Source of the DNA: Candidatus Methylomirabilota bacterium
GTDB taxonomy: Bacteria; Methylomirabilota; Methylomirabilia; Rokubacteriales; CSP1-6
Reading direction: 5' to 3'
DNA: 64,000 nucleotides
Assembly: GCA_036506275.1 (NCBI GenBank)
Contig: DASXSB010000030.1
Coordinates: forward strand, 46,683-110,682
Shown here in pieces: positions 12,920 through 49,902 of the stretch. Under the pieces are notes generated by a model. The model did not search any database, had not been told where the DNA came from, and saw only the letters and a list, made by a program, of their open reading frames with translations. The number at the start of each line of letters is the position of its first letter. Within the stretch, counting starts at the first letter, position 1. The translations under genes were made by a program, and so were the position numbers.

Positions 12920-12939
12920 GGACCGATGGAAAGGGCTGA

Positions 12940-13077: not shown

Positions 13078-13151
13078 GACTCTGTCCCCCTTGTCGACGT
13101 TGTGAGCGCGATGGCCGCCGCGCTCGCTTGACTTCCGGGGGACCGGTCACA

Positions 13152-13370: not shown

Positions 13371-14795
<1,425 letters not shown>

Positions 14796-26706: not shown

Positions 26707-27381
26707 GTGGATGCTACCCTCCCCCCCGTGAGGCTTGGCTGCGGTTGCCTTGGCGTCGTCGTCCTTTTGGTGGCCGCCACCGGTCTCGGTGGGGGGGCGT
26801 GGGTAGCGTCACGTCTGCTCCAACGACCGGCCGATGTCCCGCTGGCGGGCTCGCCGGCCGACGGCCAGCGTGCGCAGCAGAAGATCTATGAGATGGGGCG
26901 GGCGAGCCGGTCTGCGCCGCACGGCGCGGAGGCGATCGTGATCACGGAGGCCGAACTCAACGCGTTTCTCTCACGGCACGTGATCGACGCCGTCGACGTT
27001 CCTCTCACCGACCTTGCCGTCCGCATGGTCGGTGGCGATGGCGTGCAGATCTATGGTCGCACCACGCTGCGCGGCGTCCTCGCGGACCCTCCGCTCTCGA
27101 ACGCGATCGCCGCCCTGCCCGCACGCTGGCAACGACAGAACATCTGGCTACGCTTCGACGGCACGGTGCGGGTGGAAGCGGCGACGAACGGCAAAGGACG
27201 GATGCTGCGGATCGATCTCGATCGACTGTGGGTCGGGCGTCAGCCGCTGCCGGCGGTGTGCGCGCGCCTCGCCTTCGATCCCGCGGTGCTGGCACTGCTG
27301 CGGTGGCGAGTGCCGGCGCGACTGGAAACGGTTTCGATCGAGCCGGGGCGCGCGATCATCCGGCCAGCTTCCGCGCGCTGA
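26707..27381 (+). CDS. Hypothetical membrane-anchored protein (one N-terminal TM, 224 aa)
   Basis: GTG start. N-terminal TM LGCGCLGVVVLLVAATGLGG is followed by a soluble domain with no motif I can name. Coding-like composition. Divergent from the hsp20 promoter. Confidence 0.5.
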   Translation: MDATLPPVRLGCGCLGVVVLLVAATGLGGGAWVASRLLQRPADVPLAGSPADGQRAQQKIYEMGRASRSAPHGAEAIVITEAELNAFLSRHVIDAVDVPLTDLAVRMVGGDGVQIYGRTTLRGVLADPPLSNAIAALPARWQRQNIWLRFDGTVRVEAATNGKGRMLRIDLDRLWVGRQPLPAVCARLAFDPAVLALLRWRVPARLETVSIEPGRAIIRPASAR

Positions 27382-29168: not shown

Positions 29169-30908
29169 ATGCCTCCGCCTCAGCCCAAGCTCGGGCAGCC
29201 CGCGAACCGCCGCCTCGGTGACCTCCTCGTCGCCGACGGACTCATCACGGACGAACAGCTCAGAAAGGCTCTCGCCGAGCAGCGCGGGACGGGGGAAAAG
29301 CTCGGGAGCATCCTCGTTCGCCTCAATCTCGTGAACGAGGAGCAGTTGACGGGCTTCCTGTCCCGGCAGTACGGCATCCCGTCCATCACGCTCTCCCAGC
29401 TCGACGTCGATCCGGAATTGCTGCGCCTGGTGCCGTCTCAGATCGCGAAGAAGTACGAGGTCCTCCCCATCCGGCGCGTGGGCGACTCCCTGGCGCTCGC
29501 CATGGCCGACCCCACCAACGTCTTCGCCCTCGACGACGTCGCCTTCATGACCAATTTGAAGGTGCTGCCGCTAGTGGCGCCCCAGGCGGCGATCCGGAAG
29601 GCGATCGACCGCTTCTACGACAACCAGAGCGACGCCATCTCGGGCGTGCTCACCGCCCTCACCAGCGAGGCGCCCAACGTCGAAGTGGTCGACAGCGACG
29701 AGTCCGCCAACAAGGTCGACGTCTTCGAGCTCAAGGAATCGGCGGACGAGGCGCCCGTCGTCAAGCTCGTCAACATGGTGCTCGTCGACGCCATCCAGAA
29801 AGGGACGTCGGACATTCACTTCGAGCCGTACGAGAAAGTGTTCCGGATCCGGTTCCGCATCGACGGCGTGCTCCAGGAGGTGCTCGCTCCCCCCAAGAAG
29901 CTCGAGTCGGCGCTCATCTCCCGGCTCAAGATCATGTCGAACCTCGACATCGCGGAGCGTCGACTGCCCCAGGACGGCCGCATCAAGCTGCGCTACAACC
30001 AGCGCGAGATCGACTTCCGGGTGTCGATCCTGCCCACGATCTTCGGCGAGAAGGCCGTGCTCCGTATCCTCGACAAGGAAGCGCTGAAGCTCGACCTCAC
30101 CCAGCTCGGCTTCGATCCCTGGAGCCTCGAGAACTTCGATAAGGCGATCAACCAGCCGTACGGGATGGTCCTGATCACGGGCCCCACTGGCTCCGGCAAG
30201 ACGACCACGCTGTACTCCGCGATCCACACCATCAACTCTCCCGACGTCAACATCATGACGGCGGAGGATCCCGTCGAGTACAACCTCAAGGGCGTCAACC
30301 AGGTGCAGATCGACGAAGGCGTGGGTCGGACGTTCGCGGCCGCTCTCCGCTCGTTCCTGCGGCAGGACCCGGACGTCATCCTCGTCGGCGAGACCCGGGA
30401 CCTGGAAACCGCGCAAATCGCCATCCGGGCCGCGCTCACCGGCCATCTCGTCTTCACGACCCTCCACACCAACGACTGTCCTTCCACCATCGCCCGGCTC
30501 ATCGACATGGGCGTCCCCAACTTCCTGGTGGCGTCGTCGATGCAGCTCATCCTCGCCCAGCGTCTCGGGCGCAAGGTCTGCAAGCAGTGTCGCGAGCCCT
30601 ATGACACCGACGAGGAAACGCTGGTGCCGTACGGCCATGTGCTGAGCGGCGTGGGCAAGACGCAGTTCTACAAGGGCAAGGGGTGCCCCGCCTGCAACCA
30701 GACCGGGATGAAGGGCCGCGTCGCCATCTACGAGGTAATGCCGATCACCGAGGAACTACGCGACCTTATCCTCAAGAACGCGTCCACCGCCGAGCTCAGG
30801 TCCATGGCGCAAGCGCAGGGCATGAAGACCCTCCGCCAGGCAGGCCTTTTGAAGGTGCTCGACGGAACCACGACGCTGGACGAGGTCCTTCGCGTTACGA
30901 TCGCGTAG
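29169..30908 (+). CDS. pilB: Type IV pilus assembly ATPase PilB
   Basis: N-terminal GSPII_E N domain is present. Walker A GPTGSGKTTT, Asp box, Walker B and the tetracysteine motif CKQC...CPAC are present. Confidence 0.9.
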   Translation: MPPPQPKLGQPANRRLGDLLVADGLITDEQLRKALAEQRGTGEKLGSILVRLNLVNEEQLTGFLSRQYGIPSITLSQLDVDPELLRLVPSQIAKKYEVLPIRRVGDSLALAMADPTNVFALDDVAFMTNLKVLPLVAPQAAIRKAIDRFYDNQSDAISGVLTALTSEAPNVEVVDSDESANKVDVFELKESADEAPVVKLVNMVLVDAIQKGTSDIHFEPYEKVFRIRFRIDGVLQEVLAPPKKLESALISRLKIMSNLDIAERRLPQDGRIKLRYNQREIDFRVSILPTIFGEKAVLRILDKEALKLDLTQLGFDPWSLENFDKAINQPYGMVLITGPTGSGKTTTLYSAIHTINSPDVNIMTAEDPVEYNLKGVNQVQIDEGVGRTFAAALRSFLRQDPDVILVGETRDLETAQIAIRAALTGHLVFTTLHTNDCPSTIARLIDMGVPNFLVASSMQLILAQRLGRKVCKQCREPYDTDEETLVPYGHVLSGVGKTQFYKGKGCPACNQTGMKGRVAIYEVMPITEELRDLILKNASTAELRSMAQAQGMKTLRQAGLLKVLDGTTTLDEVLRVTIA

Positions 30909-30973: not shown

Positions 30974-32188
30974 ATGGCTGTGTTCGCGTACCGGGGCAGG
31001 TCCACGGCGGGAGCCGTGTCCGGTGAGGTGGAGGCCGACGACCGGCTGGCGGCGGTCACGCAGCTCCGAGCCAAGGGCGTCGTACCGACCGCGGTCGAGG
31101 AGCGCAAGGGGAAGACGGCGGCGGCCACCGCCGGCACCAAGAAGATCCGCGGCAAGGTCAAGGACAAGGACCTCGCCATCTACACCCGGCAGTTCTCCAC
31201 CATGGTCGACGCCGGACTCCCCATCGCGCAATGCCTCCAGATCCTGTCCGAGCAGAGCGACTCGAAGCCCTTGCGCGAGGTGACCGCGCTCATCGCCCGC
31301 GACGTCGAGGGAGGCTCCACGCTGGGCGACTCCTTCCGCAAGTATCCGCGGGTCTTCGATGACCTCTTCACGAACATGCTCCAGGTCGGGGAGTCGGGTG
31401 GCGTGCTCGACGTGGTCCTCCAGCGCCTCTCCGGCTACATCGAGAAGGCGGCCGCCCTCAAGCGGAAGGTCAAGGGCGCGATGGTGTATCCAATCACCAT
31501 CATCTCCGTCGCCTGTCTCATCATCATCTTCATGATGGTGTTCGTCATCCCGACGTTTGCCACCATGTTCAAGAACCTCGGCGCCGAGCTTCCCCTGCCC
31601 ACGAAGATCGTCATGTGGGCGTCGGACTTCACGCGGAAGTACATCATCTTCATGATCCTCGCCATCGCCGGCCTCATCTACGCCTTCAAGCGCTACTACC
31701 GGACGGAGAACGGCAGCACCGTCATCGACACCTTCATGCTGAAGGTGCCCGTCATCGGCATGCTGATCCGGAAGGTGGCGGTGGCGCGCTTCACGCGCAC
31801 GCTGGGGACGCTGATCTCGTCCGGCGTGCCGATTCTCGAAGGGCTCCGCATCACCGCGCGCTCCGCGCAGAACCGCGTGGTGGAGAAGGCCGTTATGCAG
31901 GCCCGCTCGGCGGTGACGTCGGGCCGCACGCTCGCGGAGCCCCTGAAGGGCACGCCGGTCTTCCCGCCCATGGTCGTCCACATGATCAACGTCGGTGAGA
32001 ACACGGGCGCTCTCGACGCCATGCTCTCCAAGATCGCCGACTTCTACGACGACGAGGTCGACACCGCCGTCAGCGCCCTCACGTCGTTGCTGGAACCGCT
32101 CATGATCGTGTTCCTGGGCGTGGTCGTGGGCGGACTCGTGGTCGCGATGTACATGCCGATCTTCAAGCTGGTGACGCTGGTCAAGTAG
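30974..32188 (+). CDS. pilC: Type IV pilus inner-membrane platform protein PilC
   Basis: Track ORF 30683..; real start at M98 (MAVFAYRGRS..., RBS TAGGAGA). It has two GspF-type repeats with three TM segments. Confidence 0.9.
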   Translation: MAVFAYRGRSTAGAVSGEVEADDRLAAVTQLRAKGVVPTAVEERKGKTAAATAGTKKIRGKVKDKDLAIYTRQFSTMVDAGLPIAQCLQILSEQSDSKPLREVTALIARDVEGGSTLGDSFRKYPRVFDDLFTNMLQVGESGGVLDVVLQRLSGYIEKAAALKRKVKGAMVYPITIISVACLIIIFMMVFVIPTFATMFKNLGAELPLPTKIVMWASDFTRKYIIFMILAIAGLIYAFKRYYRTENGSTVIDTFMLKVPVIGMLIRKVAVARFTRTLGTLISSGVPILEGLRITARSAQNRVVEKAVMQARSAVTSGRTLAEPLKGTPVFPPMVVHMINVGENTGALDAMLSKIADFYDDEVDTAVSALTSLLEPLMIVFLGVVVGGLVVAMYMPIFKLVTLVK

Positions 32189-33798
32189 TGAAGTCGCTCG
32201 ACGCCAACCGCCTCCTGCGCGGGTTCTCGTGGGTGCGGCTGGGGCTCGCCGAGCTCCTGCTCGTGGTGGGACCGCTCCTCCCTCCCGAGCTGATGCCGGG
32301 AACCAATGCCGGCATCCTCGCCCTCGCGTTGCCGGTGGCGGTGGTGTCCTCGGGGGCCATCTTGCTCTTCGGCCCCGTGGCGCAGCCCCGCCGCATCGCC
32401 TGGTTCCTGTGCTTGCTCGACGTCACGTTGATCACGGCGGTCGTGGCCGCCACCGGCGGCGCGCGCTCGATCTTCGCCTTCCTGTACGTGCTCTCCGTCA
32501 CCGGCGCCTGCGTGCTGCTGTCGCGGACGGGTGGCCTCGGCATCGCCGCCGTGTGCAGCGTCCTCTACACCGGCCTCGTGCTCGGACGGACCGTCTTTCC
32601 CATGAACGTCTTCTTCGAGGCACCGGGAGAGACGACCGCCCTCGAGGTCCTCACGATCTTCCTCAATTCCGGGACGTTCCTCATCGTGGCGATCGTGGCG
32701 GGCGGCGTTGCCGAGCAATTCCGGACCGTGCACGAGGAGCTGGAGACGGAGCGGAAGAACCTCAGCGACCTCCAGGCCTTCAAGGACCTCGTCTTCCAGT
32801 CGCTCGACACGGGCGTCATCGCCCTCGACCTCGAGGCGCGCGTGACCGCGTTCAACCGGGCCGCGGAGCGGATCACGGGGCTGTCGGCCCACGACGCCAT
32901 CGGGCGCCGGTGGACGGCGCTCTTCGGACCCGGCGTCGCCCTCGACGCCGTGGAGGCCGCCATCGATGCGGGAGCGCGGACGGGTCCGCGCCACGAGCTG
33001 ATGCTGCCGTATGCGCGGGGCGGCACCGTCCCCGTGCGCGTGGCCTTCTCCGCCGTCCGTTCCGCCGACGGCACGCGCGTGGGCATCATCGCGCTCTGCG
33101 AGGACCTCTCCACGCTGCGCGAGATGGAGGAGCGCGTTCGCCAGGCCGATCGTCTCGCCACCCTCGGTCGCATGGCCGCCAACATCGCGCACGAGATCCG
33201 CAATCCATTGGCGTCGATGACGGGCGCCCTCGAGGCCCTCACGAGCGGCCTCCCCACCGAGGAGCGTGACCGCCTCGCCCAGATCGTGCTGCGCGAGTCT
33301 GACCGGCTGAACGAGATCATCAAGAACTTCCTGGAGTACGCGCGTCCGGCTCCCATTGTCTTAGAATCGGTCGATGTGGCGCACGCGCTCGACGAGGTTC
33401 TGGTCCTCCTCGAGCACCGGGGCAAGTCGCTCAAGATCGTACGCGAATTCACGGGACCGATCCCCTGGCGCGTCGATCCCCAGCAATTCCGCCAGGCCAT
33501 CTGGAACCTCTGCTTGAATGCGGTGGAAGCGATGACGGACGGCGGAGAGCTGCGCGTGGGAGCCGAGATCCGGCGCCGGCGGCTCGAAGTGTGGGTGGCC
33601 GACACCGGGGAAGGCATCGGGGCCGGCGATCTTTCGCACATCTTCGAGCCGTTCTTCTCCACCAAGCCGAACGGCAGCGGTCTCGGCCTCGCTCTCGTCC
33701 ACCGCATCGCGCAGGATCACGGCGGCGACGTCGACGTCCGTAGCGCGCCCGGCTTCGGCAGCCACTTCACCCTTACCCTTCCCGCCCACGATGGCTGA
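32188..33798 (+). CDS. pilS: PilS-like sensor histidine kinase (multi-TM sensor, PAS, HisKA, HATPase)
   Basis: About 6 N-terminal TM helices are present. H-box reads IAHEIRNPLASM. G-boxes DTGEGIG and GSGLGLALV are present. GTG start overlaps the pilC stop by 1 nt. Confidence 0.8.
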   Translation: MKSLDANRLLRGFSWVRLGLAELLLVVGPLLPPELMPGTNAGILALALPVAVVSSGAILLFGPVAQPRRIAWFLCLLDVTLITAVVAATGGARSIFAFLYVLSVTGACVLLSRTGGLGIAAVCSVLYTGLVLGRTVFPMNVFFEAPGETTALEVLTIFLNSGTFLIVAIVAGGVAEQFRTVHEELETERKNLSDLQAFKDLVFQSLDTGVIALDLEARVTAFNRAAERITGLSAHDAIGRRWTALFGPGVALDAVEAAIDAGARTGPRHELMLPYARGGTVPVRVAFSAVRSADGTRVGIIALCEDLSTLREMEERVRQADRLATLGRMAANIAHEIRNPLASMTGALEALTSGLPTEERDRLAQIVLRESDRLNEIIKNFLEYARPAPIVLESVDVAHALDEVLVLLEHRGKSLKIVREFTGPIPWRVDPQQFRQAIWNLCLNAVEAMTDGGELRVGAEIRRRRLEVWVADTGEGIGAGDLSHIFEPFFSTKPNGSGLGLALVHRIAQDHGGDVDVRSAPGFGSHFTLTLPAHDG

Positions 33799-35191
33799 CG
33801 CGCGCGTCCTCGTCGTCGACGACGAGCGGAGCATGCGTGATCTGCTCTCGATCATGCTGAAGCAGAGCGGATATCACGTGGTGGCCGCCGACGGCGGCGA
33901 AGAGGCGCTGGCCGCCATCGCCCAGGAGCCCTTCGACCTCGTCATCACCGACCTCCGGATGCGGAAGGTCGACGGCATCGCCGTCCTCCGCGCGGCCAAG
34001 GAGCATTCGCCGCACACGGTCGTCCTCGTGGTGACCGCCTTCGCGTCCACGGAGACGGCGGTGGAGGCCATGAAGCTCGGCGCCTACGACTACATCACCA
34101 AACCGTTCAAGCTCGACGAGATCAAGCTGATCATCGCCAACGCCATCGAGCGCAAGCGTTTGCAGGACGAGAACGTCGCCCTCAAGCGCCAGCTCCGCAA
34201 GGAACGCGGGTTCGAGCACTTCATCGGCAAGAGCCGGAGCATGCTCGAGGTCTTCGAGACCATTCGCAAGACGGCCGACAGCGGCTCCACGGTGGTGGTC
34301 ACGGGCGAGAGCGGTACCGGGAAGGAGCTGGTGGCGCAGGCCATCCACGGCGAGAGCGCGCGGCGACAGGGGCCGTTCGTCTCCGTGAACTGCGGCGCCG
34401 TGCCCGAGAACCTGATGGAATCGGAGCTGTTCGGGCACATGAAAGGCGCGTTCACGGGTGCCATCGCCACCACGGAGGGACTGTTCGCGGCCGCCCACGG
34501 AGGGACACTGTTTCTCGACGAAATCACCGAAATACCGCAGTCGGTGCAGGTGAAGCTCCTGCGCGCCATCCAGGAGCGGGAGATCAGGCGGGTGGGCGAC
34601 GTGAAAGACGTGAAGGTCGACGTTCGTCTCATCGCCGCCTCCAACCGCGACCTCGCGAAGGCCATGGCGCAAGGGACGCTCCGGGAGGACCTCTTCTATC
34701 GGCTCAACGTCATCCCCATCCAGCTTCCGCCGCTGCGGGACCGCCGCGAGGACATCCCGCTCCTCGTCGCGCACTTCATCCAGAAGATCTGCCGGGAGAC
34801 CGGCAAGGACGTCCGCGGCGTCACCCCGGAAGCCCTCGCGATCCTCGAGTCGTATGCGTGGCCGGGCAACATCCGCGAACTGGAGAACGTGATCGAGCGC
34901 GCGATCGTGCTCGGAGGCGGGCCCATGGTGCGGCCGGAGGCGCTGCCGCCCACGCTGCGGTCGCCGTCGAGCGTCCACGACGTAGCGGTGGAGATTCCCG
35001 AAGGTGGTCTCGACCTCGAAGCCACCATCGACCGCGTCGAGCAGCGCTACATCGAGCTCGCGCTTGCGCGTGCGGGCGGCGTGCAGACACGCGCCGCCGA
35101 GCTCCTCGGGGTGAGCTTCCGGCAGTTCCGCTACAAGCTCCACAAGCACACGGCGAAGACACCCCGGGCCACCTCACCGGATCACCGGTGA
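33791..35191 (+). CDS. pilR: Sigma-54-dependent response regulator PilR
   Basis: Receiver VLVVDDERSMRDLL...DLVITDLRMRKVDG. AAA+ GESGTGKELVAQAIH / GAFTGA. C-terminal HTH. The start overlaps the pilS stop. Confidence 0.9.
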   Translation: MADARVLVVDDERSMRDLLSIMLKQSGYHVVAADGGEEALAAIAQEPFDLVITDLRMRKVDGIAVLRAAKEHSPHTVVLVVTAFASTETAVEAMKLGAYDYITKPFKLDEIKLIIANAIERKRLQDENVALKRQLRKERGFEHFIGKSRSMLEVFETIRKTADSGSTVVVTGESGTGKELVAQAIHGESARRQGPFVSVNCGAVPENLMESELFGHMKGAFTGAIATTEGLFAAAHGGTLFLDEITEIPQSVQVKLLRAIQEREIRRVGDVKDVKVDVRLIAASNRDLAKAMAQGTLREDLFYRLNVIPIQLPPLRDRREDIPLLVAHFIQKICRETGKDVRGVTPEALAILESYAWPGNIRELENVIERAIVLGGGPMVRPEALPPTLRSPSSVHDVAVEIPEGGLDLEATIDRVEQRYIELALARAGGVQTRAAELLGVSFRQFRYKLHKHTAKTPRATSPDHR

Positions 35192-35297: not shown

Positions 35298-35313
35298 TGG
35301 CACCCCCCGTGCA
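35298..35313 (+). promoter_or_regulatory. Sigma-54 promoter (TGGCAC-N5-GTGCA) for pilA1
   Basis: TTTGGCACCCCCCGTGCACACC; GG at 35299-300 and GC at 35311-312 (canonical spacing). About 75 nt upstream of the pilA1 ATG. Confidence 0.6.
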
Positions 35314-35386: not shown

Positions 35387-35806
35387 ATGATCGCGTTCTG
35401 GAATAAGAAACGTCTCACGCTCGGCAGCGAGCGTGGCTTCACGCTCATCGAGCTGATGATCGTGGTCGCGATCATCGGCATCCTGGCTGCCATCGCCATC
35501 CCGCTCTATGCGAACGTTCAGCAGCGCGCCCGTATCGCCAAGGTTCAGGCGGACCAGCGTGCGCTCGCGTCGGCTATCTCGATCTTTCAGGCGCACACGG
35601 GCGGGCTCCCGGCTGCGCTCGCGAACCTGACGGCCACCGTGTCGAACGGGCAGGGCCAGACGGCGGGCCCGTTCATTGCGCGCGAACCGTCGCCTCCCGG
35701 TGGCGGCACCCCGGCGTGGGGCGCGACCTACACGTACACGGATAACGGTAACGGCACGTTCACGCTCACGGCGACGGGTGACGGCACCACGATCACCACT
35801 CCGTAG
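35387..35806 (+). CDS. pilA: Type IVa major pilin PilA, copy 1 (139 aa precursor)
   Basis: Track ORF 35210..; start at M60. Class III leader MIAFWNKKRLTLGSERG|FTLIELMIVVAIIGILAAIAIP has Gly-1/Phe+1/Glu+5. No cysteines. The C-terminus is Thr/Gly-rich. Confidence 0.9.
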   Translation: MIAFWNKKRLTLGSERGFTLIELMIVVAIIGILAAIAIPLYANVQQRARIAKVQADQRALASAISIFQAHTGGLPAALANLTATVSNGQGQTAGPFIAREPSPPGGGTPAWGATYTYTDNGNGTFTLTATGDGTTITTP

Positions 35807-35838
35807 CGACAGCACGCTTCGCGCTCGGATGTATCGAC

Positions 35839-35870
35839 GGGGAGGCACCTGCCTCCCCGTTTTGTTTTGT
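35839..35870 (+). terminator. Rho-independent terminator after pilA1
   Basis: GGGGAGGC-acct-GCCTCCCC hairpin followed by GTTTTGTTTTGT. Confidence 0.6.
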
Positions 35871-36052: not shown

Positions 36053-36068
36053 TGGCACTGGGCGTGCA
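36053..36068 (+). promoter_or_regulatory. Sigma-54 promoter (TGGCAC-N5-GTGCA) for pilA2
   Basis: TTTGGCACTGGGCGTGCACT with the same -24/-12 geometry as the pilA1 promoter. About 64 nt upstream of the pilA2 ATG. Confidence 0.6.
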
Positions 36069-36130: not shown

Positions 36131-36550
36131 ATGATTCGTTTCTGGAACACGAAGCGCCTCACGCTCGGGAGTCAGCGTGGTTTCACGCTGATCGAGCTGA
36201 TGATCGTGGTCGCGATCATCGGTATCCTGGCGGCGATCGCCATCCCGCTCTATGCAAACGTTCAGCAGCGCGCCCGTATTGCGAAGGTGCAGGCCGACCA
36301 GCGCGCTCTCGCGTCGGCGATCTCGATCTACCAGGCTCACACGGGTGGGCTCCCGGCTGCGCTCGCGAACCTGACGGCTACCGTGTCCAACGGACAGGGT
36401 CAGACGGCGGGTCCCTTCGTGGCGCGTGTCCCTTCGCCTCCCGGTGGCGGCACCCCGGCGTGGGGCGCGACCTACACGTACACGGATAACGGTAACGGTA
36501 CGTTCACGCTCACGGCGACGGGTGACGGCACCACCATCACCACTCCGTAA
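36131..36550 (+). CDS. pilA: Type IVa major pilin PilA, copy 2 (139 aa; 6 substitutions vs copy 1)
   Basis: Track ORF 35951..; start at M61 (MIRFWNTKRLTLGSQRG|FTLIELMIVV...). The rest is near-identical to pilA1. Confidence 0.9.
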   Translation: MIRFWNTKRLTLGSQRGFTLIELMIVVAIIGILAAIAIPLYANVQQRARIAKVQADQRALASAISIYQAHTGGLPAALANLTATVSNGQGQTAGPFVARVPSPPGGGTPAWGATYTYTDNGNGTFTLTATGDGTTITTP

Positions 36551-36564: not shown

Positions 36565-36605
36565 ACGAGGCGGGGAGGGAGCATCCTCCCCGCCTCGTAT
36601 TTTCG
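36565..36605 (+). terminator. Rho-independent terminator after pilA2
   Basis: A 13-bp stem CGAGGCGGGGAGG / CCTCCCCGCCTCG with loop GAGCAT, followed by TATTTTCGG. Confidence 0.6.
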
Positions 36606-36619: not shown

Positions 36620-38542
36620 ATGCTCGACCGAACCATCAGCATCCTGACCGCCGCTGTCGCCGTCGACACCGAGTCCGCACCGTCCGATCGCGTCCGCGTT
36701 TCCCCGCTGACGCAGTACCTGCTGCCCGCTGCCCTCGCCGTGCTCGCGTTCCTGGTCTTCGCGCCCGCACTCTGGAACGGTTTCGTGGAATGGGACGACG
36801 ACGTCAATCTCCTCCGTAACACGCAATACCGTGGTCTCGGCTGGGCTCAGCTCCGCTGGATGCTCACGACGATCCTGATGGGCCACTACATTCCCCTCAC
36901 CTGGTTCACGTTCGGCCTCGACTTCACGATGTGGGGCATGGACCCCTTCGGGTATCACCTCACCAACCTGATCCTGCACGCGGCGAACACGGCCCTCGTC
37001 TACCTGGTCGCGCGGCGGCTGCTCTCGCGCGCGACGTCGCTGCGCGAGCCGCGTCTCGGTATTGCCGCCGCCACCGCCAGCGTGTTCTTCGCGGTTCATC
37101 CGCTGCGCGTGGAATCCGTGGTGTGGGTGACGGAGCGCCGCGACGTCCTCTCCGGCTTCTTCTTCCTCCTCGCCGTGCTGACGTACCTCGTCTCCACGGA
37201 CCACACCGGAGGTCGGAAGCGGTGGTTCCTGGCGGCGGGGGCCGCGTCGTTCGCGCTCGCGCTCGTCTCGAAATCGATCACCATGACGCTGCCGCTCGTC
37301 CTCGTGCTCCTCGACGTGTATCCGCTGCGACGGCTCGGTGGGGATCAGGGCTGGACGGGGCCCCGCGCGCGACTGGTGTGGATCGAGAAGCTTCCGTTCT
37401 TCGTGCTGGGAGCGGCCGGCGCCGCCGTCTCCTACTACGCCGTGTACGCGAACGCATTCTTGACGCCGCTCACCCGGTATCCGCTGCCGGCGCGCATTGC
37501 GATGACGCTCTACAGCGTCGCGTTCTATGTCGCGAAGACGGCGCTCCCCCTCGGGCTCTCCCCGATGTACGAGCTGCCCGCGCATCTCGACCCCTGGGAA
37601 CTGCGTTTCGTCGCGAGCGCGCTCTTCGTCATGCTCGTAAGCACGGTCACGCTCGTATTGTGGAAGCGGTCGCCGGCAGGGCTCGCCGTCTGGCTCTACT
37701 ACGGCATCGTGCTCGGCCCCGTCACCGGATTCATCCATTCCGGCCACCAGCTCGCCCACGATCGTTACAGCTATCTGTCCTGCCTCGGATGGGCGCTGCT
37801 GGTGGGGGGCACCGTGGGTGTCGTCCTTCGCGCGACGGCGCGCCGTCGTGTGCGTCCGTTCTTCGCGGTCCTGGCGGGCGTGGCCGGGATCGTCTGGCTC
37901 GTCGGCCTCGCCTTCCTCACCGTGCGCCAGAACGAGGCGTGGCGCGACACCGAGCGCCTGTGGTTGTACGCGCTGCAGGCCGATCCCACCTGCGCGGTGT
38001 GCCACAGCAACCTCGGCGCCTACCTCGTGAACCAGAACATGGTGGAGCCCGCGCTCCAGCATCTCCACCGCACGATCGAGCTCCGCCCGGAGCGCCTGAA
38101 GACCCACGGCAACATCGGCCTCGCGCTGCTCAAGCTCGGGCGCGTGGAGGAGGCGATTCCCCGCTTCCGTCTCGCCCTCGAGGAGGATCCTTACGACGTC
38201 GGCTTCCTCACGAACTTGAGCGTGGCCCTAATGCGGCAGGGCCGGACGGCGGAAGCGCTTCCCTATCTGGGCCGTGCCCTCGAACGCGACCCGGGCCACA
38301 TCCTCGCCCGCACGAATCTCGGCACTGCGCTCGCGAAGCTCGGGCAGCGCTCGGAAGCGCTCAAGCAGTACCGCCTGGCCCTCGCCATCGATGCCGACGC
38401 GCCCCCGCCCCATCTCGGTCTCGCCACGCTGTATCGTGAGAGCGGCGACATGGCGTCCGCGAGGCGGGAGTACGAGACGCTGCGTGCGCTCAAGTCTCCA
38501 CTCGCCGAGCAGATCAGTCCCGCCTTCATCGAGGAGTGGTGA
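36620..38542 (+). CDS. GT-C fold membrane glycosyltransferase-like protein (TMTC / PMT_2 / DUF1736-like) with C-terminal TPR repeats
   Basis: About 11 TM helices are present. A conserved loop motif reads FAVHPLRVESVVWVTERRDVLSGFFFLLA (HPxxxExVxWxxxRxDxL). The C-terminal ~200 aa are TPR repeats. Confidence 0.75.
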   Translation: MLDRTISILTAAVAVDTESAPSDRVRVSPLTQYLLPAALAVLAFLVFAPALWNGFVEWDDDVNLLRNTQYRGLGWAQLRWMLTTILMGHYIPLTWFTFGLDFTMWGMDPFGYHLTNLILHAANTALVYLVARRLLSRATSLREPRLGIAAATASVFFAVHPLRVESVVWVTERRDVLSGFFFLLAVLTYLVSTDHTGGRKRWFLAAGAASFALALVSKSITMTLPLVLVLLDVYPLRRLGGDQGWTGPRARLVWIEKLPFFVLGAAGAAVSYYAVYANAFLTPLTRYPLPARIAMTLYSVAFYVAKTALPLGLSPMYELPAHLDPWELRFVASALFVMLVSTVTLVLWKRSPAGLAVWLYYGIVLGPVTGFIHSGHQLAHDRYSYLSCLGWALLVGGTVGVVLRATARRRVRPFFAVLAGVAGIVWLVGLAFLTVRQNEAWRDTERLWLYALQADPTCAVCHSNLGAYLVNQNMVEPALQHLHRTIELRPERLKTHGNIGLALLKLGRVEEAIPRFRLALEEDPYDVGFLTNLSVALMRQGRTAEALPYLGRALERDPGHILARTNLGTALAKLGQRSEALKQYRLALAIDADAPPPHLGLATLYRESGDMASARREYETLRALKSPLAEQISPAFIEEW

Positions 38543-39288
38543 TGGTCGGCGTCGTTTTCGCGTTCGGCCTCGTCATCGGCAGCTTCTTGAACGTCGTCAT
38601 CGCGCGCTTGCCCGCGCGCCGGAGCCTGTGGGCGCCGCGGTCGGCGTGTCTCGGGTGTGGAACTCCCATCGCGTGGCACGACAACATTCCGGTCCTGTCC
38701 TTCGTCGCTCTCCGCGGTCGCTGTCGCGCGTGCGGGGTCGCGATCTCCGCGCGCTATCCGATCGTGGAGCTGGGCACGGCGATCCTCTGGAGTCTCGCGT
38801 ATCGCGAATTCGGCCTCACCCCCGAGCTGGCGGTGGCGCTCCTCCTGCTGTCCGCACTCATCGTCATCACCGCCATCGATCTCGATCACCAGATCATTCC
38901 GGACGCGATCACGCTCCCCGGCATCGTGACAGGATTCGTTGCCAATCTGGCGACCGGACGCGTGCCATGGCTGGATTCGCTCCTCGGCATCCTCGTCGGT
39001 GGCGGCATCTTTTTGATCATCATCATTGCCAGCGGCGGCGGGATGGGCGGCGGAGACATGAAGCTCGGCGCGATGCTGGGCGGTTTTTTGGGCTGGAAAG
39101 TCCTGCTCTTGTCGGTGTTCGCGTCGGTGCTGCTCGGAGGCGCGCTCGCCATCGGCCTCCTCGCGGCCGGGCGCCGGGGTCGTAAAGACCCCATCCCGTT
39201 TGGTCCCTTCCTTGCACTTGGCGGCGCCGTCGGCCTCTTCTGGGGCGACCGCCTGCTGCATTGGTACCTGGCGTCATTTCAACCATGA
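38536..39288 (+). CDS. pilD: Prepilin peptidase / N-methyltransferase PilD (A24 family)
   Basis: The N-terminal tetracysteine CLGCGTPIAW...CRACG is present. The catalytic Asp region IDLDHQIIPD is present. The protein is polytopic. Confidence 0.9.
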   Translation: MVMVGVVFAFGLVIGSFLNVVIARLPARRSLWAPRSACLGCGTPIAWHDNIPVLSFVALRGRCRACGVAISARYPIVELGTAILWSLAYREFGLTPELAVALLLLSALIVITAIDLDHQIIPDAITLPGIVTGFVANLATGRVPWLDSLLGILVGGGIFLIIIIASGGGMGGGDMKLGAMLGGFLGWKVLLLSVFASVLLGGALAIGLLAAGRRGRKDPIPFGPFLALGGAVGLFWGDRLLHWYLASFQP

Positions 39289-39289
39289 G

Positions 39290-39781
39290 ATGGACATGCC
39301 AATGAACGACGTGACGAGGCGACCCAATCGCGGCCAGCGAGGATTCTCGCTGACCGAGCTCGTTGTCGTGGTGGCCATCATCGGAGTTCTCGCCGTTCTC
39401 GCGACCCCGTTCTTCATCACATACCTCCGCAACGCGGCGGTCCAGGGCGCCGCGGGCGAGGTGGCGACGATCCTGAACCAGGCTCGGCAGCTCGCGATCG
39501 CTCGGAACGGAAGCGTGTGCGTCCGGATCAACGGCGCCACCATGCGCTACGAGCTGAACGCCTGCGGAAGCGCCGTTTACTACCGTGGCCCGGGAACGGA
39601 CAGCAATGGCTACATGCGTCTCACGGACAACGTCAATCTGGCGACGACTGCGGACCCGGTCTTCACGAGTCTCGGCGCAGCGGCGCCGGCGGCAACCTAC
39701 ACCGTGACGCACTCCCAATATCCCACCATCACGACGACCGTCACGGTCTCGGGCTCGGGCCGTGTACGGGTCGGACCGTAG
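39290..39781 (+). CDS. Type IV minor pilin (FimT/GspH-like pseudopilin)
   Basis: Start at M31 of track ORF 39200.., 1 nt after the pilD stop. Prepilin leader ...RGQRG|FSLTELVVVVAIIGVLAVLA. Confidence 0.7.
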   Translation: MDMPMNDVTRRPNRGQRGFSLTELVVVVAIIGVLAVLATPFFITYLRNAAVQGAAGEVATILNQARQLAIARNGSVCVRINGATMRYELNACGSAVYYRGPGTDSNGYMRLTDNVNLATTADPVFTSLGAAAPAATYTVTHSQYPTITTTVTVSGSGRVRVGP

Positions 39782-39794
39782 ACGGCGGTGCTGC

Positions 39795-40223
39795 ATGCGG
39801 GTCGCGGTGAACGAGCGCGGGCTGACGCTCGCGGAGGTGTTGGTGGCGACCGTCATCATCGCGGCGGGCTTTCTCGCCGTCCTCACCGCCTTTCCGCAGG
39901 CGATGACCGGTGTGCAGACGGGCAACGAGGAATCGACGGCGACGTTCCTCGCTCAGCAGAAGCTCGAGTCCTTGCGGGCGGCCGCCGTGAACGATCCCAT
40001 GCTCACGGCGGCGACCTTCAGCAACGGCGTCACCACGGAAGCGTACGGCACCATTCCGAACGCGCAGAAGTACCAGCGCGTCACCGCCATCACGGCCGGC
40101 CCCACCACGACCACCAAGCGCGTTACGGTGACCGTGACGTACCGGCCCTCCGTCGCGACGTCCACGGGCGGGAGCGCCGCCCGCACGGTGACCGTCGCCA
40201 CCGTCCTCTCCACGAGGCGGTGA
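39795..40223 (+). CDS. Type IV minor pilin (PilV/GspI-like)
   Basis: Start at M12 of track ORF 39762... Leader MRVAVNERG|LTLAEVLVATVIIAAGFLAV is followed by a Thr-rich C-terminal part. Confidence 0.65.
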   Translation: MRVAVNERGLTLAEVLVATVIIAAGFLAVLTAFPQAMTGVQTGNEESTATFLAQQKLESLRAAAVNDPMLTAATFSNGVTTEAYGTIPNAQKYQRVTAITAGPTTTTKRVTVTVTYRPSVATSTGGSAARTVTVATVLSTRR

Positions 40224-40307
40224 CGATGGCGCGAATGACGGGAGACGACCGCTCGGCATGCGCGGGGTGGATGGAGCGCGCCGTCGATCTCCCTCTCCCC
40301 GCCCGGG

Positions 40308-41633
40308 GTGCCTGACCGGCCGCGCGTGCGACACATCGAAAACGCGAAACGCGCCTGGAACGAGCGCGGGCTGGCACTGCCGCTGGCGGTGATCTGTCTG
40401 CTCACCGTCACGGGGCTCGTGCTCACGTTTCTCACCGTGAGCGCCATCGAGCCGCAGATCTCGGCGAACCACGCGCGGGGAACCCAGGCGCGCTACGCCG
40501 CCGAGGCCGGCATCGAATGGGGCTTCGACTATCTCGTCCGCACTCCCGACTGGAATGCCGTCCTCGCGGGAGCGACGGGCACCGGCCGGGACATCACGCC
40601 GGGCGCGCCCTGGGCGGGCGCCACCCCGGTGCTCGGGACCTTCACGCTGATCGTCCGCAACGACTGGCGCGCCGCGGATAGCGCCATCACCGGTGTCCCG
40701 CGCGATTCGTCCGGCGCGCCGACGACGGATACGAACAACGTCCTCCTCGTCACCGCCACCGGCAGCTTCCGCGGCGCCATGCAGACGATCACGGCGGCGG
40801 TGAGGAAAGGAGTGCTCCCCACGACCAACGCCGCCCTCGCCTTCCCGGGGTTGGGGGCGGGCGTCGACTTCGCCCACTCCGCCTTCACCATCGACGGGAC
40901 CGACTCCAATCTGGATGCGTCCGCGGGCGCCGCGCGGCCGGTCTACGGGATCTCGGTCGCCGGCGGCGCCACCGGTAATCAGACGCTCGTGCGGGACGCC
41001 GTCGCCGCCAACACGCAGAATCAGGTGCGGGGCCTGAGCGCGACGAGTGCGACGGCGCCGGCGGCCGCGACGGTGGCGAGCGGCGAGAGCGCCATCGCCA
41101 GCGACGGCGCTCTCACGTCATCGCAGATTCTCGAGTTCGTGGACGCCGTCAAGGCTCAGGCCGATGTCACGATCGACGTCAGCAACGGGACGCGCGCCAC
41201 CGTGGCGGGAGCGGGAGGGAGTTGCGCGGACGTCGGTTCCCGCACCTGCTGGGGAACGCTCGACTACCCGAAGATCGTCTACGTGAAGGGCGGCCTGACC
41301 GGCAGCCCGGGCATCGCCATCACCGGCAACAGCGAGGGCACCGGTGTCCTCATCGTGGACAGCGCGGAGGCGTCGATCGAAGGGCCGTTCCGCTGGAACG
41401 GGCCCATCATTCTCACCGGCCACAACGTGTCGCTTCGGTATGGCGGCTCCGGCAGCGGCGACATCTTCGGCGCCGTCATCATCAACGAACTGGCGACGAC
41501 CACGACGTCGGTGCAGCTCGGGAGCGACGCCGCCCGTCCCGCCGCCATTCGGTACAGTCGGCAGGCCCTCGACCTCGTCGACCGTGGCCTCAGCCGTCGT
41601 TTCGTTCACCTCTATAGCTGGCGGGAGCACTAG
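40308..41633 (+). CDS. PilX-like type IV pilus minor pilin / tip-associated protein (long form, ~440 aa)
   Basis: PilX_N-like N-terminus ERGLALPLAVICLLTVTGLVLTFLTVSAIEPQIS. The remainder is a Gly/Thr/Ala-rich beta-rich domain. The start is uncertain; a GTG (VRHIENAK) is possible. Confidence 0.6.
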   Translation: MPDRPRVRHIENAKRAWNERGLALPLAVICLLTVTGLVLTFLTVSAIEPQISANHARGTQARYAAEAGIEWGFDYLVRTPDWNAVLAGATGTGRDITPGAPWAGATPVLGTFTLIVRNDWRAADSAITGVPRDSSGAPTTDTNNVLLVTATGSFRGAMQTITAAVRKGVLPTTNAALAFPGLGAGVDFAHSAFTIDGTDSNLDASAGAARPVYGISVAGGATGNQTLVRDAVAANTQNQVRGLSATSATAPAAATVASGESAIASDGALTSSQILEFVDAVKAQADVTIDVSNGTRATVAGAGGSCADVGSRTCWGTLDYPKIVYVKGGLTGSPGIAITGNSEGTGVLIVDSAEASIEGPFRWNGPIILTGHNVSLRYGGSGSGDIFGAVIINELATTTTSVQLGSDAARPAAIRYSRQALDLVDRGLSRRFVHLYSWREH

Positions 41634-41750: not shown

Positions 41751-42809
41751 ATGTTTAAGTTGCCCTTCTTGCGTAAAGCGGCGGATGTCTTCGGCCTCGA
41801 TATCGGCTCCAGCGCCATCAAGGTCGTGCAGCTCGACGGGTCGGGCAAGTCCTACCGCCTCTCCGCGCTCGGCATCACCTCGCTCGGCCCCGACGTCATC
41901 ACCGAGGGCGCCATCAAGGATCCGGGCGCGGTCGTGGACGCGATCAAGGACGCGGTGGCCAAGGCCGGCATCAAGACGACCGACGCCGCCATCGCAATCG
42001 CCGGACGCGAGCTGATCATCAAGAAGGTTCAGATCCCGGAGGTCCCGGAAAAGGAGCTGCGGGGCGCCATCCAGCTGGAGGCGGAGCACCACATCCCGTT
42101 CTCGATCGACGAGGTCTTCCTCGACTACCAGGTCGTCGGGCACCACGATCGCGTCCTCGATCTGATCCTGGTCGCGGTGAAGAAGTCGAAGGTCATCGAG
42201 TACGTGGGAGTGGTGGAAGAGGCGGGCCTCAATCCGGTCATCGTCGACGTCGACGGCTTCGCCCTCGGCAACCAGTTCGAGCTCAACCATCCCGGCGAGG
42301 ACGGAGAGGCGGTCGCCCTCATCGATATCGGCGCCTCCATCATGAAGACCAACGTGGTGCGGGGAGCGGCGACCATCTTTGCGCGCGACATCCCGTTCGG
42401 TGGTCATCGCTACACGGAGGCGATCGCCGAGCACCTCCGGATTTCCCGCGACCGCGCGGAGGAAGCCAAGCTCGGCCGCGCTCCCGACATCGCCTGGGAC
42501 ACGCTCGCGCCCGCCCTGGAAGCGGTATCGCGAGAGCTCTCGCTCGAGGTGCAGCGGACGTTCGACTACTTCGCGTCCACCGCCGAGTCGGAGCGCATCG
42601 CCAAGATCGTCCTCGCCGGCGGCTGCGCGCAGCTTCCCGGTCTCGACGACTACCTCTCCTCGAGTTGGGGAATCCCCGTCGAGCTCGCTCGGCCCTTCGA
42701 GCGCGTCGACGTCTCGCGCGAGTACGCGGATGCCGTGGCGGCGGCCGGCCCCGCCCTCGCGGTGGCGGCAGGTCTCGGACTCCGCCGGCCAGGAGACAAG
42801 GACGCATGA
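41751..42809 (+). CDS. pilM: Type IV pilus assembly protein PilM (actin-like ATPase fold)
   Basis: FGLDIGSSAIKVVQL ... the typical PilM/FtsA-like fold markers. Confidence 0.9.
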   Translation: MFKLPFLRKAADVFGLDIGSSAIKVVQLDGSGKSYRLSALGITSLGPDVITEGAIKDPGAVVDAIKDAVAKAGIKTTDAAIAIAGRELIIKKVQIPEVPEKELRGAIQLEAEHHIPFSIDEVFLDYQVVGHHDRVLDLILVAVKKSKVIEYVGVVEEAGLNPVIVDVDGFALGNQFELNHPGEDGEAVALIDIGASIMKTNVVRGAATIFARDIPFGGHRYTEAIAEHLRISRDRAEEAKLGRAPDIAWDTLAPALEAVSRELSLEVQRTFDYFASTAESERIAKIVLAGGCAQLPGLDDYLSSSWGIPVELARPFERVDVSREYADAVAAAGPALAVAAGLGLRRPGDKDA

Positions 42810-43363
42810 TCAGGATCAACCTCGCGCCCGCACCCGAACGCCGACGGGGGGCCGGGTTCCGGATCTCGGTACCGAGCTTCAACCTCGGCATGCTGTTCTT
42901 GGTCGTGTACGCGGTGGCCTTCCTCGGCATCGGCGCCTACTGGAAGATCCTCTCCAGCGCCGAGAGCCGCTTGACCGCCAGCATCCACGACGGCCAGCGC
43001 GAGCTCGACACCCTCAAGCTCAAGATCGGCAAGCTCGGGAAGGTGAAGGAGCTGCACGCCGAGCTCCAGAAGCGGGTCGCGGCCATCGAGACGCTCACGA
43101 AGGATCAGACGCGGCCCATCCTCCTCGTGGACGCATTCGCCGACATGATCCCCCGCGATCTGTGGATCACCGGTATCGAGGAGCGCTCCTCGTCCCTCAA
43201 GGTCACGGGCACCGCCTTCTCCACGACGGCCGTGGCCGACCTCATGTCGAACCTCCGCGCCTCGGGGAGGTTCAAGGAGGTCGATATCGTGGTCTCGCGC
43301 CAGGACCTCACCAAGACCCCGCGCCTGGTGACCTTCGAGGTCACCTGCCGGTTCGAGATCTGA
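42806..43363 (+). CDS. pilN: Type IV pilus assembly protein PilN
   Basis: Start at M48 of track ORF 42665.. (MIRINLAP...), overlapping the pilM stop (ATGA). It has one TM and a coiled coil. Confidence 0.85.
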   Translation: MIRINLAPAPERRRGAGFRISVPSFNLGMLFLVVYAVAFLGIGAYWKILSSAESRLTASIHDGQRELDTLKLKIGKLGKVKELHAELQKRVAAIETLTKDQTRPILLVDAFADMIPRDLWITGIEERSSSLKVTGTAFSTTAVADLMSNLRASGRFKEVDIVVSRQDLTKTPRLVTFEVTCRFEI

Positions 43364-43364
43364 G

Positions 43365-43982
43365 ATGGAATCGCTGAAGACGGCGTTCGCTCCGATTCTG
43401 AACGCGCCGAAGCCGCACAAGATCGCGATCGGCGTGATGGTGCTCGTGCTCGTGGGCGGCCTCACGTACTACTTCCTCCTGTCCCCGCTCCAGCAGCGAG
43501 TGGCCGAGCTGGAGACGCAGAACGAGCAGGTGCAACGCGAGGTGGCCCAGCATCGGGCGATGGTGGCCGACCTCGAGCGTTATCGCCGCGAGGCCGCCGA
43601 GCTCGAGAAGCGTCTGGCCATCCTCCAGGAGAAGCTGCCCACCGAAAAGGAGATGCCGCCGCTCTACCGCACCATGTCGGACGCGGCGTTCGAGTCGGGC
43701 CTGGCGGTGTCGCTCTTCCAGCCGCGTGAGGCCAAGGTCCGCGACTACTACAACGAGATCCCGATCAGCATCGTCGCCGAGGGCGGCTATCACGAGCTCG
43801 GTGAGTTCCTCGAGAAGGTGGGCAGGCTGCCGCGGGTGGTGACGGTGGGCGACATGAAGCTCAGCGGCCTCACGAGGCAGAAGAATCCGATGAAGGCCGA
43901 GGTGACGTTCGCTACCTACACCTACCGCCCGGTTGGTTCGCCGCCGGCGCCGAAGCCCGGCGCCGCGCCAGGAGCCAAGTGA
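43365..43982 (+). CDS. pilO: Type IV pilus assembly protein PilO
   Basis: One TM (IAIGVMVLVLVGGL) is present. A coiled coil follows. The position after pilN supports the call. Confidence 0.85.
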   Translation: MESLKTAFAPILNAPKPHKIAIGVMVLVLVGGLTYYFLLSPLQQRVAELETQNEQVQREVAQHRAMVADLERYRREAAELEKRLAILQEKLPTEKEMPPLYRTMSDAAFESGLAVSLFQPREAKVRDYYNEIPISIVAEGGYHELGEFLEKVGRLPRVVTVGDMKLSGLTRQKNPMKAEVTFATYTYRPVGSPPAPKPGAAPGAK

Positions 43983-44443
43983 TGACGGTCTCGCGCTCTC
44001 TGTTTTGGTCGCTCGGGCTGGTGACTACGCTGACCGCCTGCAGCGGCGGCCCTTCGGGGCCGGAGCTGACAGTGGCCCCCAAGCCGGCCGCACCCGGTCA
44101 ACCGGTGGCGGCCGTCGTCACGCCGCCGCCGGCGATGCCCGAAGGCTCCCGCGTCGGCTACGACCGTAAAGGCCGGCGAGACCCATTCGAGGTGCTGGAG
44201 GTCCGGCAAGGCGCCAAGGGAGTGACGGTGTCTTCCGCCAAGCTCACCGGCATCGTGCGCGGCGATGGTTCGCCGCTGGCACTCGTGGAGACGCCGGAGG
44301 GACTCGGCTACATCCTCAAAACGGGCGACACCCTGGGCGACGGACGACTTCTCGAGATCGGGCAGGACACCGTGGTGTTCGGCGTTGTGCCGACGCCAGG
44401 TGAAGCCGCTAACCGCGTGATCTTAAAACTGGCGACCAACTAA
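43979..44443 (+). CDS. pilP: Type IV pilus assembly lipoprotein PilP
   Basis: Lipobox LTAC. The C-terminal pilot-like beta domain is present. The start overlaps the pilO stop. Confidence 0.8.
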   Translation: MMTVSRSLFWSLGLVTTLTACSGGPSGPELTVAPKPAAPGQPVAAVVTPPPAMPEGSRVGYDRKGRRDPFEVLEVRQGAKGVTVSSAKLTGIVRGDGSPLALVETPEGLGYILKTGDTLGDGRLLEIGQDTVVFGVVPTPGEAANRVILKLATN

Positions 44444-44445
44444 TC

Positions 44446-49272: not shown

Positions 49273-49902
49273 ATGTCGGTGGAAGACGCCACAACCGCCA
49301 ACGCCATCCGCCGGCACGAAGAGCGGCTCGCGCGGGATCCTCAGTCGCTCGCCTTTGCGCAGCTCGCCGACCTCTATCGCAAGGCGGGGCGCACACGGGA
49401 AGCGATCAGCATCTGCCGGGAAGGACTGACGCGCTATCCGCACTACACGACCGCCCGCTTAATCCTTGCCAAGACCCTCATGGCCGATGGCGATCTCGCG
49501 GACGCCGTAGTCGAGCTGGAGGCGATTCTGGAATCGAGTCCGGCCGACGTGCAGTGTCATCGCCTCGCCGCCGAGGCGCGACGTCGCAGTGGTGACCTCG
49601 ATCTGGCCGTCAAGCACCTGGAGGCGGCCACACGGCTCGATCCGGGCGACCGGGAATCGCGCGTGCTCCTGGCGCTCCTCCGCGCCGACCCCGCCGGCAC
49701 CGGGGAGGCCACGGGCGTGGCCCGCGTGCTGCGCGACGACACCTTCGTGAACGTGACGTTCGCGACGACGTGCCTGGAGCAGGGGCTCGCGGACGAGGCG
49801 GCGCTCGTCTTCACGCGCATCTTGCGGCGCGATCCCGATCACAAGGATGCGCGCGAAGGGCTGGAATCCGCGCTGCGGGCGCGGTCACGACGGAAGGGGT
49901 AG
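49273..49902 (+). CDS. TPR-repeat protein
   Basis: About 5 TPR-like helical repeats are present. I recognise no other domain. Confidence 0.6.

Follow-up and report, generated by a model that had tools for sequence, protein, structure and literature searches.

The window analysed here is a stretch of 64,000 nucleotides from a Methylomirabilota genome (contig DASXSB010000030.1). It contains a complete type IVa pilus cluster. Embedded in this cluster, between the second of two pilin genes (pilA2) and the prepilin peptidase gene pilD, is a gene for a putative membrane glycosyltransferase, referred to here as the GT gene. A preliminary description of the window had proposed it as a candidate pilin O-glycosyltransferase. 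The GT gene (36620-38542, + strand) is a real open reading frame (ORF) of 640 amino acids, and the GC content at its third codon positions (0.88) is typical for coding frames in this window, which has 68% GC overall. An identical 640-residue protein is recorded from a metagenome-assembled genome (MAG) of Methylomirabilota (formerly Rokubacteria), where it carries the NCBI label 'tetratricopeptide repeat protein'. There is no paralogue of the gene within the window. The protein is very probably an active glycosyltransferase of the GT-C fold which has a periplasmic protein as acceptor and is functionally tied to the pilus. We give a probability of roughly 50% to the more specific reading, that it is an inner-membrane GT-C enzyme of the animal TMTC type which is dedicated to the type IVa pilus and uses the major pilin as its acceptor. 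The cluster is laid out as follows.

29169-30908 (+): pilB.
Ending at 32188 (+): pilC, directly after pilB.
32188-33798 (+): pilS.
33791-35191 (+): pilR, encoding a sigma-54 activator and adjoining the pilin genes upstream.
35298-35313 (+): sigma-54 type -24/-12 element upstream of pilA1; exact match to the pattern TGGCAC-N6-TGCA.
35387-35806 (+): pilA1, encoding a type IVa major-pilin-like protein of 139 residues (N_methyl E 3.1e-9, T2SSG E 3.9e-5).
35836-35861 (+): terminator-like hairpin past pilA1, with an 11-bp stem followed by a T-run (folding free energy, dG, -33.7; z -3.6).
36053-36068 (+): sigma-54 type -24/-12 element upstream of pilA2.
36131-36550 (+): pilA2, tandem paralogue of pilA1 (95.7% amino acid identity, 89.8% nucleotide identity).
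36565-36598 (+): hairpin between pilA2 and the GT gene, with a 14-bp GC-rich stem followed by UAUUUU (dG -44.8 kcal/mol, z -5.1).
36620-37942 (+): GT-C membrane domain of the GT protein, residues 1-441, with 11 transmembrane (TM) helices.
37949-38527 (+): periplasmic tetratricopeptide repeat (TPR) domain of the GT protein, residues 444-636, six repeats (Pfam TPR families, secondary structure of the model).
38542-39288 (+): pilD, prepilin peptidase/N-methyltransferase (A24_N_bact E 1.1e-32, Peptidase_A24 E 2.2e-21).
39200-41633 (+): minor-pilin genes, namely a GspH/FimU-like gene, a 175-residue ORF and a PilX_N-like gene of 441 residues.
41751-46860 (+): pilM-pilN-pilO-pilP-pilQ, for assembly proteins and the secretin.

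The GT gene starts 69 nucleotides past the stop codon of pilA2, and this arrangement is conserved among relatives. It lies directly after the pilA2 terminator, as the preliminary description had noted; the hairpin at 36565-36598 ends 21 nucleotides before the ATG. This hairpin is a putative leaky terminator or attenuator, and no sigma-54 or sigma-70 consensus was found between it and the start codon. At the other end, the TGA stop codon (38540-38542) shares one nucleotide with an ATG at 38542 (TGATG), and a stop/start overlap of the GT gene with pilD recurs in orthologous loci. An overlap of seven nucleotides had been described earlier. Because the TGATG junction is of the same kind as those in orthologous loci, the overlap is probably one nucleotide and not seven, and the most likely start of pilD is ATG 38542 rather than GTG 38536. 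The predicted overlap is of a type indicating translational coupling of the GT gene with pilD.

The position of the gene is not peculiar to this genome. Orthologues with 85%, 78%, 62%, 59% and 56% identity to the GT protein are all encoded between pilA and pilD. The order pilA, GT gene (one to three copies), pilD is found in related loci L001-L011, L013, L016 and L024, and extends across Methylomirabilota down to about 55% identity. Tandem copies occupy the same slot in some of them: there are three copies in L016 (3872-9232) and two in L008 (10001-13883), and two copies are also found in the metagenomic loci L117, L121, L125, L149 and L150. This suggests that the enzyme has diversified within the slot between pilA and pilD. 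In a neighbour-joining tree built from the N-terminal domains (N-domains), the 18 pil-linked copies all fall together in one clade. The synteny that the earlier description had put forward as a check is thus borne out, and the linkage to the pilus cluster is genuine within one phylum. Among the best 80 genome loci, six from Methylomirabilota are pil-linked and one, from an Elusimicrobia MAG, has a divergently adjacent family member. In that locus (L069, 3721-6804) a protein of 543 residues, a distant family member belonging to another clade, is encoded 148 nucleotides away from, and divergently to, genes for a pilin (148 residues) and a PilD (261 residues). It was considered as an independent linkage outside Methylomirabilota and rejected; one such case in 74 loci, against about 0.3 expected by chance, is not significant.

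The GT protein has two parts. Hydropathy, the positive-inside rule and an AlphaFold 2 (AF2) model agree on 11 TM helices, and they place the N-terminus on the inner side of the membrane and the C-terminus in the periplasm. The model has a predicted local distance difference test score (pLDDT) of 89.9 and a predicted template modelling score (pTM) of 0.86, and includes a membrane-parallel helix (289-308) inside the fourth periplasmic loop. The C-terminal part is an array of six TPRs at approximately 444-636 (TPR_2 E 2e-23). The length of 640 residues, the roughly 11 TM helices, the loop motif described below and the C-terminal TPR array, all listed in the preliminary description, were each confirmed. 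The two features that define GT-C enzymes, a multi-spanning GT-C core fold and an acidic DD motif in the first extracytoplasmic loop, are both present. The DD motif is part of W58-D59-D60-D61, which follows TM1; among 43 diverse relatives D60 is invariant and D59 is at least 90% conserved. Besides D59-D60, the periplasmic loops bear H160-D175 (HPLRVESVVWVTERRD), K218 and D381-R382-x-x-Y385. The loop motif beginning with H160, in full H160-P-L-R-V-E-S-V-V-W-V-T-E-R-R-D-V-L177, is nearly invariant across the family. Taken as a group, the catalytic and loop residues show at least 90% conservation, or no variation at all, across 62 orthologues and the 43 wider relatives. A pair of cysteines, C458-x-x-C461, lies where the last TM helix meets the first TPR (window positions 37991-38002). 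All 62 orthologues have it, as do 17 of 17 pil-linked copies; among other paralogues just 16 of 62 possess it, and TMTC proteins lack it. The pair may form a disulfide in the periplasm or a metal site.

Sequence profiles recognise little of the membrane domain. Pfam and NCBIfam scans of the whole protein returned TPR families only (residues ~450-626), and for residues 1-441 no Pfam family was matched at E<=10. Among the 43 relatives, PMT_2 (PF13231) was matched by three (best E 2.3e-6) and PMT (PF02366) by two (E 0.03); DUF1736 (PF08409) was matched by none of them and by none of 120 orthologues. The hidden Markov model search for PMT_2 or DUF1736 that the preliminary description had suggested as confirmation therefore failed. 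A profile of the GT N-domain matched no solved structure at E<=10, a sequence search of the PDB with the full-length protein and its profile found TPR proteins only, and tblastn of the N-domain against plasmids gave a single irrelevant archaeal match. Pipelines of the JGI nevertheless label many orthologues 'protein O-mannosyl-transferase'. Structural comparison of the model gave Pmt2 (18.5, with 341 residues aligned), Pmt4 (18.4), STT3B (18.3) and ALG12 (18.2) as the best matches, followed by ArnT (15.7), AglB (15.5), PglB (15.4) and AftA (15.0).

The membrane domain is clearly homologous, over its whole length, to that of TMTC1-4, which are animal protein O-mannosyltransferases of the GT-C fold with C-terminal TPRs that O-mannosylate cadherins. 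An N-domain of human TMTC3 served as bait only (the best database match was 96% identical to it). It retrieved genuine TMTC1-4 proteins, nearly all of which, where they span the region of the fourth extracytoplasmic loop (EL4), carry PF08409. A profile of the 43 family N-domains was then aligned by hhalign with a profile of 24 TMTC1-4 proteins, giving a probability of 99.85% and an E-value of 1.6e-30 over 382 collinear columns (37-446 against 9-429). The assignment to the GT-C/TMTC type made in the preliminary description thus stands, although not by the Pfam route. The two groups share their overall architecture, an 11-TM N-domain followed by C-terminal TPRs on the lumenal or periplasmic side, and on this profile evidence the GT protein is a bacterial homologue of the GT-C domain of TMTCs. 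Some of the TMTC motifs M1-M7, taken from Eisenhaber et al. (PMC7801869), have counterparts. The DD motif (M1) aligns with D59-D60; the loop HP..E.V...R.D corresponds to FAVHPIHTEAV..GRAELL (M3, RxD/E); and M7, (D/E)RxxY, which is ERxxY in TMTCs, is D381-R382-x-x-Y385 in the GT protein. Others are partly kept or lost. In M4, KE(T/Q)xxT, K218 and T223 are kept but E is replaced by S219; M2 (SHKSYRP) is represented in part by H89-Y-I-P92, with ten residues around SHKSYRP missing; the DW of M5 is absent from the family and aligns to S-P-(L/M)-Y; and only P367 is kept of the PxxP of M6. TMTCs also differ in carrying DUF1736 and in having more TPRs than the six of the GT protein. Their donor is of the dolichyl phosphate type, whereas for the GT protein a bacterial polyprenyl phosphate would be expected, and the two also have different acceptors. 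Compared with the fungal and actinobacterial PMTs (GT39) and with ArnT (GT83), the GT protein has no MIR domain.

GT-C enzymes do not all act on proteins. ArnT, Emb/Aft and GtrC-type enzymes modify lipids or glycans, and the GT protein could likewise modify lipid A, a cell-wall polymer or an exopolysaccharide; TPRs are also found in polysaccharide export proteins, and there is weak NCBIfam similarity to BcsC and PrsT. We consider this unlikely. Structurally, the protein O-mannosyltransferases Pmt2 and Pmt4 match best; TMTC1-4, likewise protein O-mannosyltransferases, give the sole highly significant profile match; and there are no polysaccharide genes nearby. In the literature examined, the known GT-C enzymes with C-terminal TPRs (TMTC, TMEM260 and TfpW) act on proteins.

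TfpW, from Pseudomonas aeruginosa/paraeruginosa group IV strains (Pa5196, PA7), is a GT-C enzyme of 646 residues with 11 TM helices (bioRxiv 10.1101/2020.04.19.049825; PMC11841053). Its periplasmic loop 1 carries a DDx motif that is essential, and its C-terminal TPR domain is large and periplasmic; its best modelling template is ArnT, and its gene lies immediately downstream of pilA (bioRxiv 10.1101/2020.04.19.049825). It is required for O-glycosylation of the pilin with D-arabinofuranose (bioRxiv 10.1101/2020.04.19.049825; PMC11841053). By its published description, TfpW resembles the GT protein in length (646 and 640 residues), number of TM helices, DDx motif in loop 1, periplasmic TPRs and location after pilA. 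The statement in the preliminary description that this family is not among the known pilin glycosyltransferases is therefore doubtful. TfpW shares its design, so the notion of a pilin glycosyltransferase class without precedent lacks support. There are differences. TfpW is from Pseudomonadota and the GT gene from Methylomirabilota; tfpW is followed by tfpX, whereas the GT gene is coupled to pilD. The loop-4 motif of TfpW, YX6PFX7P, has an approximate counterpart at a similar place in EL4 of the GT protein, the conserved Y303-X6-P310-X4-P315...E318-L-P320, with other spacing and no PF. The D-arabinofuranose pathway of TfpW systems (DprE1/DprE2, phosphoribosyltransferase, GtrA-like protein) was not seen within the 64-kb window. 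Other pilin glycosyltransferases are more distant. TfpO/PilO and PglL also modify pilins in the periplasm, and tfpO too lies directly after pilA, but these enzymes are of the Wzy_C/O-antigen-ligase type, with an unrelated fold, preassembled undecaprenyl-diphosphate oligosaccharides as substrates and no TPRs. In the cyanobacterium Synechococcus elongatus, a TPR-bearing glycosyltransferase homologue, Ogt, is described as needed for pilin glycosylation (PMC9306852); it is named as an O-GlcNAc-transferase-type homologue and not as a GT-C membrane enzyme. A search of the literature on this gene in Rokubacteria/Methylomirabilota found nothing.

A number of observations weigh against a dedicated pilin glycosyltransferase of the TMTC type. 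One concerns the active site: two of the metal ligands modelled in TMTCs are not kept in the GT protein (E is replaced by S219, and the D of DW has no counterpart). Others concern genome context. Neither the 64-kb window nor the conserved flanks of orthologous loci were found to contain genes for synthesis or flipping of a lipid-linked sugar; the neighbours in the window encode ABC transporters, chaperones, Lon, aro gene products and similar proteins. Most of the best genome loci (73 of 80) are not pil-linked, and these include many Methylomirabilota paralogues. In a reverse test, 80 metagenomic loci were fetched via PilD alone, and the 56 with at least 700 nucleotides upstream of pilD were counted (three of them reassigned by hand from N-domain matches). 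One or two copies of the GT gene precede pilD in 30 of these; in the other 26, pilA abuts pilD with no GT gene between them, so the gene is dispensable for this type of pilus. In a PilD tree the loci without the gene make up one large clade, basal clades with cysteine-bearing pilins and a few small groups nested among the gene-bearing loci. On this distribution, the GT gene is an optional though recurrent accessory of the pilus cluster which has been gained or lost several times.

The pilins themselves give no sign of the enzyme. PilA1 and PilA2 each have 139 residues, with a 17-residue leader ending G|FTLIE and a mature part of 122 residues which has no cysteine and 17 threonines. The tail of the window pilin reads ...PSPPGGGTPAWGATYTYTDNGNGTFTLTATGDGTTITTP; a pilin from a locus without the GT gene, with the tail ...PPPGGSPAWGAYTYTSSSAGTFTITASGDGTTVTVP, is of the same cysteine-less, threonine-rich type. 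No co-variation with the GT gene was found for pilin length, serine plus threonine content, threonine content, cysteine content or tail. Median serine plus threonine content is 19.0% in loci without the gene and 18.7% in loci with it, and around 17% is nothing unusual in pilins. With its two closest relatives set aside, the globular part of the window pilin is 62-68% identical to pilins of loci without the gene and 47-63% identical to those of other gene-bearing loci. In P. aeruginosa, pilin groups are typed by the pairing of pilin and accessory gene (PMC11841053), whereas in the loci compared here the pilin sequence does not follow the enzyme. The preliminary description regarded the threonine-rich, cysteine-less tail as an obvious acceptor. 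Since the pilin sequence does not track the enzyme, and the same pilins are found in the 26 loci that lack it, this argument falls away. Pilin glycosylation is not refuted by the lack of co-variation; in lineages without the gene at this position, the enzyme might be encoded at another place or the pilin might stay unmodified. It should also be recorded that seven loci without the gene (L103, L118, L126, L127, L140, L145 and L166) have longer pilins, with 136-150 mature residues and 2-5 cysteines, whereas pilins of the cysteine-less type have 116-125 residues; because of this, at least two pilin classes must circulate in related pil clusters. The upstream regions of pilA1 and pilA2 are dissimilar apart from their own sigma-54 elements, most coding differences between them are synonymous, and both tandem copies appear to be kept by selection.

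These points would sit well with an active GT-C protein glycosyltransferase that has some other acceptor, for example a minor pilin, PilQ/PilNOP, or proteins of the periplasm or outer membrane that have no relation to the pilus. In that case co-regulation, or inheritance within one lineage, would account for its location in the pil cluster. About half of the related clusters carry the same type of pilin without the gene, and no donor genes are linked to it. The family is also very large: an exhaustive HMMER search with the GT N-domain alone found 70,580 cluster representatives (at 50% identity) with E<=0.001, and 12,555 with E<=1e-30. Its tens of thousands of members occur in many contexts, often as several paralogues per genome or in tandem arrays, and the genome loci are from Methylomirabilota, Syntrophobacteraceae, Elusimicrobiota, Planctomycetota, Gemmatimonadota, Binatia, Acidobacteriota and others. 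Because the absences in the PilD tree cluster as one large clade, with a few small ones, much of the synteny could be phylogenetic inertia. However, the pil-linked copies are a single clade which has stayed in the slot between pilA and pilD to about 55% identity and through tandem duplications, the stop/start coupling to pilD recurs, and TfpW, the only characterised enzyme with the same architecture and position, modifies the adjacent pilin. A different acceptor is thus a possibility to be taken seriously, but a doubtful one.

It might also be supposed that the protein is not an enzyme at all. In that case it would be a pilus assembly factor, with TPRs like those of PilF, PilW or Tgl that chaperone the secretin or pilin, and the membrane domain would be a mere anchor. 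Annotation pipelines label orthologues PilF or TadD, no lipoprotein pilotin gene is present in the cluster, and the protein matches the PilW family TIGR02521 with an E-value of 1.1e-18. This match is, however, well below the family cut-off (67.6 bits against 154), as is that to Tgl (42 against 225); the similarity is generic to TPRs, with higher scores for designed consensus TPRs. PilF, PilW and Tgl are all short lipoproteins of the outer membrane, not inner-membrane proteins with 11 TM helices. Of the 56 related clusters, 26 manage without the GT gene. Catalysis is favoured by the invariance, in orthologues and paralogues alike, of the DD motif and of the remaining GT-C loop motifs. A non-catalytic role is very improbable.

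If the major pilin is indeed the acceptor, the system may work as follows. PilS/PilR and sigma-54 would drive pilA1 and pilA2, and some transcripts would pass the strong hairpin after pilA2 into the GT gene, giving low-level expression. Through the stop/start overlap, the enzyme and the prepilin peptidase would be made together. The enzyme would sit in the inner membrane with its 11 spans, near the prepilin pool; the catalytic D59-D60 and the conserved loops, which are predicted to bind a polyprenyl-phosphate sugar, would face the periplasm, where the six TPRs may serve as an acceptor-recognition module. Most likely a single sugar at a time would be moved from the polyprenyl-phosphate donor. 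The acceptors would be serine or threonine hydroxyls on the globular part of membrane-anchored PilA1 and PilA2 before polymerisation, comparable to TfpW and the group IV pilins.

Other features of the window can be described briefly. The true start of the GspH/FimU-like minor-pilin gene is probably near 39300. The 175-residue ORF that follows (39788-40315, +) has coding-like composition and no Pfam or NCBIfam match, and by its position probably encodes a minor pilin. There is no pilT anywhere in the window. Relatives have pilB-pilT-pilC (L005, L007) or only a PilT-like ATPase of 370 residues before pilC (L003, L008); the ATPase complement of the cluster thus varies among relatives. The genes aroC-aroB follow pilQ, as they do in L001, and after them, just downstream of pilQ, a TPR protein of 209 residues is encoded (49273-49902). 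It was considered as a PilF/Tgl-type pilotin and rejected, as it has no signal peptide and no lipobox. A STAND-type signalling protein of 1240 residues is encoded at 578-4300 (-); it joins a double zinc ribbon and an adenylate/guanylate cyclase domain to an AAA_16 ATPase and MalT-like TPRs. At 9360-14795 (-), another sigma-54 two-component pair, made up of an sCache/HAMP/PAS histidine kinase and a regulator of the NtrC type, flanks a family-5 solute-binding protein. The exact pattern TGGCAC-N6-TGCA is also found at 17002, within a diacylglycerol-kinase-like ORF (16893-17966). An ORF of 224 residues at 26707-27381 (+) has coding-like composition and no Pfam or NCBIfam match.

In the literature examined, the bacterial TMTC-like GT-C/TPR family is uncharacterised. 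If the acceptor is not the pilin, the GT protein would be just another uncharacterised paralogue. If the pilin is the target, a GT-C/TPR enzyme beside pilA is no Pseudomonas oddity but a recurring solution in a distant, uncultured soil phylum, and the animal TMTC O-mannosyltransferases would be tied to a very large bacterial family through a testable pair of enzyme and substrate. In Pseudomonas, glycosylation of the pilin is described as protecting against pilus-specific phages (bioRxiv 150227; PMC11841053). The patchy presence of the GT gene (30 of 56 loci) would fit an accessory function in an arms race with phages. We suggest, tentatively, that the family as a whole consists of protein O-glycosyltransferases whose acceptor specificity is set by the TPRs; of its branches, the pil-linked clade would then be the first for which an acceptor, the type IVa major pilin, can be identified. 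Pilin glycosylation of the TfpW kind, with lipid-monophosphate sugars, would in that case prove widespread outside Pseudomonadota, and experiments on the family as a whole, and on where TMTC-type O-mannosylation arose among prokaryotes, would have a starting point.

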